DNA of 64,000 bases, from the NCBI RefSeq assembly GCF_056712565.1, contig NZ_CM160072.1. One strand, written 5' to 3'. The position numbers are program-made. Below are positions 36,278 through 40,049 of the stretch, piece after piece; the first letter of the stretch is position 1; every line of letters begins with the position of its first letter.

Positions 36278-39200
36278 TTATCCTTTTACGCACACCACCT
36301 GACGCAGGGTATAGATAACTTCCACCAGATCGCTTTGTGCCGCCATCACCGCATCAATATCTTTATACGCCATCGGGATTTCGTCGATCACCTCGGCATC
36401 TTTACGGCACTCCACATGCGCGGTGGCACGGATTTGATCTTCCACACTGAACAGTTTTTTCGCTTTAGTACGGCTCATTACCCGCCCGGCACCGTGGCTG
36501 CACGAACAGAACGACTCTTCATTTCCCAGCCCACGGACGATAAAGCTTTTCGCCCCCATCGAACCGGGAATAATTCCATATTGACCAGCACGCGCAGACA
36601 CCGCGCCTTTACGCGTCACATAGATCTCTTCGCCAAAGTGCTGTTCTTTTTGCACATAGTTGTGGTGACAGTTGATCTCTTCCATCGCCAGCGTTTGTGG
36701 CTGTTTTACCGTTTTCTGCGTAACGCTCTGCAACGCCGTTACCACGTTTTCCATCATCGCATCGCGGTTAAGGCTGGCAAAAAGCTGCGCCCAGGCCACG
36801 GCTTTCAGGTAATCATCAAAGTATTCCGTACCTTCCATAAAGTACGCCAGGTCACGCGATGGCAACGTTTCAAGCGTTTCCTGCATCTCTTTTTGCGCCA
36901 GATCGATAAAGTAAGTTCCGATGGCATTACCGATTCCGCGTGAACCGGAGTGCAGCATAATCCACACCTGGTCCGACTCATCAAGGCAGATTTCAATAAA
37001 GTGGTTACCCGTTCCCAGCGTTCCCAGGTGTTTATAGTTGTTAGTGTTAAGGAAACGGGGATATTTTTGCGTTAACCACTGATAACCGGCTTCCAGCTCA
37101 GCCCATTTCGCATCGACGTTAACAGGCGGATTTTCCCATGCGCCTTTATCACGTTTACAACGCCCGGTAGTACGTCCGTGCGGTACGGCCGTTTCAATCG
37201 CCTGACGCAGCTCTGCCAGGTTTTCAGGCAGGTCCGCCGCCGTTAACGCGGTACGCAGTGCGTTCATTCCACAGCCAATATCCACGCCCACCGCCGCCGG
37301 AATAATCGCCCCTTTGGTCGGGATCACGCTACCAATGGTGGAACCTTTACCCAGGTGTACATCAGGCATTACCGCAATATGTTTGAAAATAAACGGCATC
37401 TTCGCGGTATTAATAAGTTGCTGACGCGCATCGGCTTCTACCGGCACGCCTTTGGTCCACATTTTTACCGGAGCATTTTCAGTGGTCAGTAATTCGTAAT
37501 TCATTTTGTTTTTCTCTTTTCGTTGTTTGCTGTCCTGATAATTGCAACCGTCGTGCCAGAAAATCAAATAAGCATCTTAATTTTTTAATTCATTGTTTTT
37601 AAAAATATTATATTTTTACGTCCGTAAACGGAGATTTCCCGCAAAGCCGATTTACCGATAATGAAATCTCGTCTTTTATAAGGATATCTAAGATGCGTAA
37701 AACAGTGGCTTTTGGCTTTGTCGGAACGGTGCTGGATTATGCCGGGCGCGGCAGTCAGCGCTGGTCAAAATGGCGTCCGACACTCTGTCTATGCCAGCAA
37801 GAATCGTTAGTTATCGATCGGCTGGAATTATTGCACGACGCCCGCTCGCGCTCGCTGTTTGAAACGCTTAAACGCGATATCGCCAGCGTTTCGCCAGAAA
37901 CAGAGGTAGTGGGCGTTGAGATTGAACTGCATAATCCGTGGGATTTCGAAGAGGTTTACGCCTGCCTGCATGATTTCGCCCGTGGTTACGCGTTCCAAGC
38001 TGATAAAGAAGACTATTTAATTCACATCACCACCGGTACCCACGTCGCGCAGATTTGCTGGTTTCTGCTGGCAGAAGCGCGTTACCTGCCCGCCCGGTTG
38101 ATACAATCTTCACCACCGCGCAAAAAAGAGCGGCCCGATAGCCCTGGCGCAGTGACGATTATCGATCTCGATTTAAGCCGTTATAACGCCATCGCCAGCC
38201 GCTTTGCCGAGGAACGCCAGCAAACGCTTGATTTTCTTAAGTCCGGCATTGCCACGCGTAACTCCCACTTCAACCGCATGATTGAGCAGATTGAAAAAGT
38301 GGCGATAAAATCCCGCGCACCGATCCTGCTTAACGGCCCGACCGGTGCAGGTAAGTCATTTCTGGCACGACGCATCTTCGAGCTAAAACAGGCGCGGCAT
38401 CAGTTTAGCGGCGCGTTTGTGGAAGTGAACTGCGCCACCCTGCGCGGCGATACCGCCATGTCGACGCTGTTTGGTCATGTGAAAGGCGCGTTTACCGGGG
38501 CGCGGGAATCGCGTGAAGGATTATTACGCAGCGCCAACGGCGGAATGTTGTTTCTTGATGAGATTGGCGAACTGGGCGCAGACGAACAGGCGATGTTGCT
38601 GAAAGCCATTGAAGAGAAAACCTTTTACCCGTTTGGCAGCGATCGCCAGGTGAGCAGTGATTTTCAGCTTATCGCCGGAACGGTGCGCGATTTGCGCCAG
38701 TTGGTTGCCGAAGGCAAATTTCGTGAAGACCTGTACGCGCGAATAAATCTCTGGACCTTCACCTTGCCAGGATTACGCCAACGCCAGGAAGATATTGAAC
38801 CGAACCTGGATTATGAAGTGGAGCGCCACGCCTCACTCACTGGCGACAGCGTGCGTTTTAACACCGAAGCGCGGCGTGCCTGGCTGGCCTTTGCGACCTC
38901 TCCCCAGGCAACATGGCGCGGTAACTTTCGCGAACTTTCTGCCAGCGTCACGCGGATGGCCACCTTTGCCACTAGCGGACGCATCACACTGGATACGGTG
39001 GAAGATGAGATCAACCGTCTGCGCTATAACTGGCAGGAGAGTCGCCCTCCACGCTTACGGCGTTGCTGGGCGCAGAGGCAGAAAACATCGATCTCTTCGA
39101 CCGTATGCAACTGGAACACGTTATCGCTATCTGCCGCCAGGCAAAGTCGCTTTCTGCTGCCGGACGTGAACTGTTTGACATTTCGCGCCAGGGTAAAGCC

Positions 39201-40049
39201 AGCGTCAATGACGCGGATCGGCTACGCAAATACCTGGCGCGTTTTGGTCTGACATGGGAAGCAATGCAGGATCAGCACAGCTCCAGTTGAATATGATGGT
39301 CCTTCAGCACCTGCATCACGCTCGCAGGCGGCATCGTGTCGGTGTAGACAGCATCGACCATGCTGATGCTACCCATATTGACCATTGCGTTACGGCCAAA
39401 TTTTGAGTGGTCGACAACCAGCATAACGTGGCGCGAGTTCTCAATGATGGCGCGTTTGGTGCGAACTTCGTGGTAATCGAACTCCAGTAGCGAGCCGTCG
39501 CTATCGATGCCGCTTATCCCCAGAATGCCGAAATCGAGGCGGAACTGGGAGATAAAATCGAGCGTTGCTTCGCCAATGATCCCGCCATCGCGGCTGCGTA
39601 ATTCGCCACCGGCAAGAATGATACGGAAATCCTCTTTTACCATCAGCGTGTTAGCGACGTTGAGATTGTTGGTCACAATGCGTAAATTGCTGTGATTAAG
39701 CAGCGCGTGCGCCACCGCTTCCGGCGTGGTGCCGATATCGATAAACAGCGTCGAGCCATTGGGAATTTGCTCCGCCACTTTGCGGGCGATGCGCTCTTTT
39801 TCTTCGGTCTGGGTGGCCTTGCGATCGTGCCACGGCGTATTAACCGAACTGGAAGGCAGCGCCGCACCGCCATGATGGCGCAGGATCAGGTTTTGCTCTG
39901 CCAGCTCGTTGAGATCGCGGCGAATAGTCTGCGGGCTAACGGAGAAATGCTCTACCAGCTCCTCGGTGCTGACATAACCCTGCTGTTTAACCAGTTCGAT
40001 AATACCGTTGTGACGTTGTGTTTGTTTCATTGATAAATCCCTGGAATTA

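Follow-up and report, generated by a model that had tools for sequence, protein, structure and literature searches.

The regulator gene rtcR in the stretch of DNA analysed here (64,000 nucleotides, nt, of contig NZ_CM160072.1 from the RefSeq assembly GCF_056712565.1; hereafter the window) is one base shorter than its intact counterparts in Escherichia coli. The difference is a genuine single-base deletion relative to those alleles. It makes the locus a frameshift pseudogene that is young and heritable and that RefSeq already flags; the regulator itself is well known. The allele probably represents a recently fixed loss of function, in which the DNA-binding domain of RtcR would be detached from its sensor and ATPase modules and the induction of the rtcBA RNA-repair operon either abolished or strongly reduced.

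The open reading frame (ORF) that begins at the rtcR start (37693..39252, forward strand) translates into 519 amino acids (aa) and contains both GPTGAGKS and GAFTGA, in line with the preliminary description of this region, where the frame had been read as intact through the N-terminal and sigma54-interaction domains and as passing then into an aberrant tail that ends at 39252. This tail consists of 67 wrong codons. A second frame, closed by a TAA at 39027-39029, is open from 39030 and runs to a TGA at 39288-39290, again much as described before, and encodes the segment ...STLTALLGAEAENIDLFDRMQLEHVIAICRQAKSLSAAGRELFDISRQGK... together with the peptide ...LLGAEAENIDLFDRMQLEHVIAICRQAKSLSAAGRELFDISRQGK... 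that belongs to the C-terminus of RtcR. It had also been proposed that one added base between 39030 and 39065 would restore a single ORF of 532 aa. Alignment with strains N54 (99.9% identical), ATCC 25922 and K-12 places the lost base inside that interval (Table 1), as one C of a run of four: intact B2-type alleles have GTCGCCCCTCC where the window has GTCGCCCTCC. The codon of Pro452 changes from CCC to CCT and the residue is kept, so that the product would consist of 452 native and 67 aberrant residues, with native residues 453-532 lost. Re-adding one C yields an ORF of 532 aa identical to RtcR of N54 (WP_001232912.1), and the length of 532 aa that had been given for RtcR holds both for N54 and for K-12 MG1655 (WP_001232949.1), the latter differing at 16 residues from the repaired window protein. 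Between N54 and the window, this base is the only difference across the 1599-bp gene and across the 2599 bp fetched around it, and when the 1598-bp gene was searched by megablast in 5426 complete E. coli genomes, the set used for all the genome counts given below, the full-length matches elsewhere spanned 1599 bp. In N54 and K-12 the same gene lies in the same place, divergent from rtcBA, and shows the same order of CARF, AAA+ and C-terminal modules (64 codons carry synonymous differences with respect to K-12), whereas the window allele is one C short, has residues 453-532 detached and is classed as a pseudogene by the Prokaryotic Genome Annotation Pipeline (PGAP).

A lesion of one base within a homopolymer belongs to an error class of some sequencing platforms, and the preliminary description had accordingly left room for a miscall between 39030 and 39065 that would conceal an intact CCCC. 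Comparison with other strains, which had been suggested there as a check, excludes that explanation and leaves it with hardly any probability. The 81-mer centred on the CCC site has an exact match in 39 of the 5426 complete genomes, and the corresponding intact B2-type 82-mer with CCCC in 958. The 39 carriers include the type strain ATCC 11775 (= DSM 30083, also JCM 20135), S88 and APEC O1, as well as O1:K1:H7 and O2:K1:H7 poultry isolates, human isolates from blood and cerebrospinal fluid from several countries, and the EV36/KMS hybrids; their sources comprise humans, poultry, swine, duck, dog and laboratory stocks, with at least seven named countries. Moreover, the exact 519-aa product is found on at least 1000 public contigs from four sources (NCBI, JGI, ENA and Logan). 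A miscall would have had to recur in the work of many laboratories and in many hosts, at a run just four bases long, and within one single assembly series both states occur, CCC in N53 and N62 and CCCC in N54 and N41. Every genome with a perfect score over 24.9 kb around the gene is a carrier, as expected of inheritance by descent and not of random error. On the basis of the allele counts for the 81- and 82-mers and of the exact-protein look-up, a sequencing error was rejected. As PGAP calls rtcR "frameshifted" and pseudo in all ten of the carriers inspected, the frameshift is already recorded in RefSeq. The locus thus appears to hold a single indel that is reproducible in independent assemblies and clonally inherited, the clonality being indicated by the sampling.

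The position of the break with respect to the domains of the protein is what gives this allele its predicted effect. Pfam profiles identify the CARF-type domain RtcR (PF06956) at residues 2-185 (E = 9e-85), Sigma54_activat (PF00158) at residues 187-354 (E = 1e-50), with the Walker A motif GPTGAGKS and the GAFTGA loop, and AAA_lid_14 at residues 362-442; nothing is detected by Pfam after residue 442 of the repaired 532-aa protein, and the frameshifted product gives the same Pfam matches as the repaired one. The break is revealed by the NCBIfam equivalog profile for RtcR (NF038308; curated cut-off of 650 bits, profile length 530), which scores the repaired protein at 847.4 bits over residues 1-527, in effect its full length, and the ORF as found at 755.6 bits over profile positions 1-452 of 530 only. 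The displaced 80 residues match the same profile at positions 461-529 with 84 bits, which indicates that this C-terminal tail is a conserved part of RtcR, while the 67-codon aberrant tail has no family match in the Pfam and NCBIfam profile searches. By the domain boundaries, the break therefore falls between the AAA lid and the conserved C-terminal domain. As members of the family have a C-terminal DNA-binding domain in frame with the AAA+ module and residues 453-532 lie here in another frame, the locus is an rtcR pseudogene and not a functional family member.

RtcR has been described as having a C-terminal helix-turn-helix (HTH) DNA-binding domain (PMC7790460). HTH family profiles, including Pfam HTH_8 (PF02954), give no match to the full protein at E <= 10 and none to 64 RtcR C-termini at E <= 0.1, hhalign of the RtcR C-terminus against Fis reaches a probability of 5% over 12 columns, and a Foldseek search of the C-terminal model against the PDB returns no match. 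In structural models, the C-terminal domain is predicted to be a helical bundle, and, structurally, it is matched best by the DNA-binding domain of sigma54 activators. No significant sequence relationship to NtrC-family DNA-binding domains was found in the comparison with A. aeolicus NtrC1 (4l5e), NtrC4 bound to DNA (4fth) and Fis (1etk); unlike these domains, the RtcR C-termini appear, by eye, to hold a longer conserved stretch, ...SR..K..ND.DR..., before the last helix. Two RtcR-like database proteins (P0045 and P0066) stop directly behind the lid, although they may themselves be truncated.

A frameshift need not abolish the protein if the ribosome can correct it. A backward slip by one base of the tRNA-Pro on C-CCU would restore full-length RtcR, or else the HTH segment could be translated separately from a TTG at 39063 and reassociate with the rest. 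A P-site tRNA-Pro on CCU could indeed shift back by one base and pair anew with the overlapping CCC, to continue as the native ...RPSTL..., an AGGAG lies 6 nt upstream (39035-39039), and an ORF of 75 aa does begin at the TTG. Nevertheless, recoding of either kind is extremely improbable. The site has no X XXY YYZ slippery heptamer, shuffled versions of the downstream 82 nt fold just as well (z = 0.49), and the AGGAG and its surroundings are unchanged in intact alleles, so that nothing there has evolved towards recoding; the TTG has no Shine-Dalgarno sequence before it, and the 75-aa ORF is called on just five short contigs. Programmed ribosomal frameshifting, which had been regarded as unlikely from the outset, was rejected on the absence of the heptamer, the unremarkable fold and the context shared with intact alleles.

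The same homopolymer could in principle act as a phase-variable contingency switch, with slippage in the C run toggling RtcR on and off, since the two states differ by a single unit of the run and the N54 gene shows no further difference from that of the window. Known contingency tracts, however, are much longer than three or four bases, only two run lengths occur among the alleles examined, and the genomes with a perfect score over 24.9 kb are all carriers, a pattern that looks clonal. We regard such a switch as next to impossible.

Several elements of the Rtc system help to predict what this loss would entail. Sigma54 promoters require an activator. The CARF domain of RtcR binds tRNA fragments with 2',3'-cyclic phosphate ends (PMC7790460), and the protein binds an upstream activating sequence (UAS) before the sigma54 promoter of rtcBA (PMC5175333; PMC9650030). 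A normal RtcR docks at this UAS and, once its CARF domain senses damaged tRNA ends, its AAA+ ring remodels the sigma54 holoenzyme. In the window allele, the loss of a C from CCCC at codons 452-453 would lead translation on into 67 wrong codons, and the HTH-like enhancer-binding domain of the C-terminus would never be joined to the CARF and AAA+ modules. An RtcR deprived of this domain would not be concentrated at the enhancer, and at native expression the induction of rtcBA would disappear or fall strongly: as a sigma54 promoter needs its activator and this RtcR presumably cannot dock at the enhancer, little or no induction would be expected at native levels. From the sequence, both the binding of RtcR to DNA and the inducibility of rtcBA are thus inferred to be lost.

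Some observations weigh against a complete loss and would fit a hypomorph, or an activator that works from solution independently of DNA binding and leaves rtcBA partly inducible. All the CARF and AAA+ determinants are intact, rtcB and rtcA stay intact in carriers, and P0045 and P0066, possibly truncated themselves, also end at the lid. The most direct precedent is DctD250, an engineered protein that shares the AAA+ sigma54 module and lacks an enhancer-binding domain, which when overexpressed raises the activity of the rtcBA promoter 16-fold from solution (PMC3844500); its action on this very promoter makes a hypomorphic RtcR possible. However, the activation by DctD250 needed overexpression, and at glnKamtB it was about 10-fold weaker than the cognate, enhancer-bound NtrC (PMC3844500). 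The 67-residue nonsense tail may also destabilise RtcR or disturb the assembly of its ring, and two carriers show further damaging rtcR changes, with none showing a synonymous one. Other sigma54 activators without a DNA-binding domain are PspF(1-275), FlgR of Helicobacter pylori and CtcC of Chlamydia. All these examples, DctD250 included, are either overexpressed constructs or evolved forms, whereas the rtcR allele in the window is a fresh frameshift with a nonsense tail at native expression. Residual activity of the truncated protein is consequently given a small, though appreciable, chance, and a strong or complete loss of rtcBA induction is still favoured.

The distribution of the allele points to a recent, apparently clonal lesion. 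Ten genomes show no difference from the window in a comparison of 24.9 kb (27000-51900), and CCC is present in every one of them; the scores fall just slightly for the nearest genomes with a matched span longer by 1-2 bp. Among the nearest are UTI89, NU14, APEC O18, PMV-1 and BEN2908, with matches one base longer than the query; together with the carrier serotypes, we take these strains to belong to the sequence type (ST) 95 clonal complex of phylogroup B2. UTI89 and the other closest intact relatives are separated from it by just a few bases, so that the frameshift is judged to be young and to mark a sub-branch of the ST95 complex, the ST95 placement being taken from strain names and serotypes. 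That rtcB, rtcA and their promoter are still intact is likewise attributed to the youth of the lesion. As far as the sampling goes, the carriers are indicated to be each other's closest relatives over the region, and would form a single clonal branch within extraintestinal pathogenic E. coli. Of eight further carriers, six show no difference in rtcR; in FDAARGOS_1298 there is another 1-bp deletion in the gene, at window position 38409, and in APEC O1 a G-to-A change at 38639 (Ser to Asn at codon 316), and no synonymous rtcR change occurs in any of these eight. The further lesions in two carriers hint at ongoing decay, in tiny numbers, and the changes are too few for a test of selection.

Two observations were made on the carriers themselves. 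EV36, KMS2001 and KMS2005 (NZ_CP079993.1 and relatives), presumably K-12/K1 hybrid laboratory strains, have a B2-type region with the rtcR frameshift and match the window almost perfectly over the 24.9 kb, and they probably lack a normal RtcR response. In NZ_CP196251.1 and NZ_CM132641.1 the 24.9-kb query is matched in two pieces that span 26,237 bp, with the usher gene listed twice, which suggests that the fimbrial usher gene upstream of malT (window about 27000-32000) has received an insertion of about 1.3 kb, possibly an insertion sequence (IS) element, in these two carriers.

The frameshift is not the only lesion of the rtc locus in this background. A separate deletion of 3,247 bp has occurred between 14-bp direct repeats, GCAACATGGCGCGG, that lie in the window at 35661-35674 and 38908-38921; lost with it are rtcB and the promoter in full, rtcA in its 5' part and 1215 bp from the start of rtcR (codons 1-405), and at its junction (locus L006, 3968-4047) what is left of rtcA meets the final ~380 bp of rtcR. 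The exact junction is found in 565 of the 5426 complete genomes, including AR_0055 and strains labelled O25b:H4-ST131. Both lesions inactivate the same locus in the same B2-type background, and the fusion of AR_0055 (rtcA' joined to 'rtcR) keeps a B2-type rtcR 3' end; they differ in that one is the loss of a whole 3,247-bp segment in 565 genomes and the other a one-base frameshift in 39. As the deletion remnant keeps CCCC, deletion and frameshift are independent events. Together, they account for about 60% of the sampled genomes with the B2-type rtcR 3' end. The protein databases contain other forms of damage as well: P0126 is a K-12-type rtcR with a different 1-bp deletion ~40 nt downstream, after ...AENID (codons ~465 onward; window ~39085-39100), that leads into the same nonsense tail, and P0003 is a 285-aa form with an internal deletion, in which residues ~1-147 are joined to the C-terminus. 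A pan-genome study lists rtcR and rtcB among the variable "extended-core" genes (PMC12595684), and literature searches (rtcR frameshift, pseudogene or ST95; rtcB or rtcA with ST131) found no paper describing either allele.

A last question to be addressed is whether this recurrence has a meaning for the biology of these strains. The frameshift and the 565-genome deletion show that Rtc is dispensable and has been repeatedly lost in major B2 clones, which is a modest and testable evolutionary observation, and the recurrent loss could be either neutral decay or the result of selection. That selection has favoured the loss in successful B2 lineages of extraintestinal pathogens, beyond simply tolerating it, seems doubtful to us; if it were so, switching off the religation of RNA under RtcR control would benefit the cell in the host or when it meets toxins, phage or antibiotics. 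The practical consequence concerns the choice of strains. In the type strain ATCC 11775, in the pathogenic models S88 and APEC O1 and in the EV36 hybrids, RtcR is predicted to be unable to tether to the enhancer, and a response like that of K-12 should not be taken for granted when Rtc RNA repair, ribosome rescue or antibiotic tolerance is studied in carriers. The overall importance is limited to this strain caveat and to a minor addition to the evidence that B2 clones lose Rtc recurrently, which is not in itself surprising.

The features of the locus are collected in Table 1. The gene order is malT, rtcA (-), rtcB (-), an intergenic region of 188 bp, rtcR (+), glpR/glpG/glpE (-) and glpD, and is identical in the PGAP annotation of ATCC 11775 and S88, both of which are 100% identical to the window across rtcR. 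As expected of the RtcR family, rtcR is divergent from a sigma54-dependent rtcBA. The whole region between rtcB and rtcR (37505-37692) is identical to that of N54, and the rtcB accession WP_001105471.1 is common to frameshift carriers and to N54, whose rtcR is intact.

Table 1. The rtc locus and its 3' neighbour in the window (window positions).
Feature	Coordinates	Strand	Remarks
rtcR	37693..39290	+	1598 bp, versus 1599 bp in intact alleles
Native-frame rtcR codons 1-452	37693..39048	+	CARF 2-185, sigma54 AAA+ 187-354, AAA lid 362-442
Deletion site, CCC run	39045..39047	+	CCCC in all intact B2-type alleles examined; alignment with N54, ATCC 25922 and the AR_0055 remnant
Out-of-frame tail	39049..39252	+	67 aberrant codons (PRLRRCWAQRQK...NTWRVLV) and stop TGA at 39250-39252; translation
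Displaced native codons 453-532 and stop	39048..39290	+	Linker and HTH-like DNA-binding domain, detached from the rest of RtcR
rtcA, RNA 3'-terminal phosphate cyclase, intact	35258..36274	-	ORF list; PGAP WP_001350819.1 at the matching place in S88 and ATCC 11775, mapped by BLAST
rtcB, RNA ligase, 408 aa, intact	36278..37504	-	ORF and ATG read directly
rtcBA sigma54 -24/-12 element, TGGCAC-N5-TTGCA	37543..37558	-	Read directly; 38 bp upstream of the rtcB ATG
glpR, DeoR family	39272..40030	-	Convergent; overlaps the rtcR 3' end by 19 bp; PGAP of S88 and ATCC 11775, mapped

Some minor observations concern other copies and neighbours of these genes. A 138-kb E. coli plasmid (NZ_CP067400.1) has at 113331-113374 a sequence annotated as rtcA, with 95.5% identity over 44 bp to chromosomal rtcA, so plasmid-borne rtc genes may exist. 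An ORF of 373 aa (35822-36943, forward strand) that runs antisense over rtcA and rtcB is of low complexity and rich in Arg and His, and as a shadow ORF it is almost certainly spurious. Finally, glpG (window 40047-40877) encodes 276 aa and is intact in the window and in S88, and the glpG of ATCC 11775 is annotated as frameshifted, with 838 bp (locus L001, 6355-7192) and 7 gap columns with respect to the window over the 9.6-kb locus.

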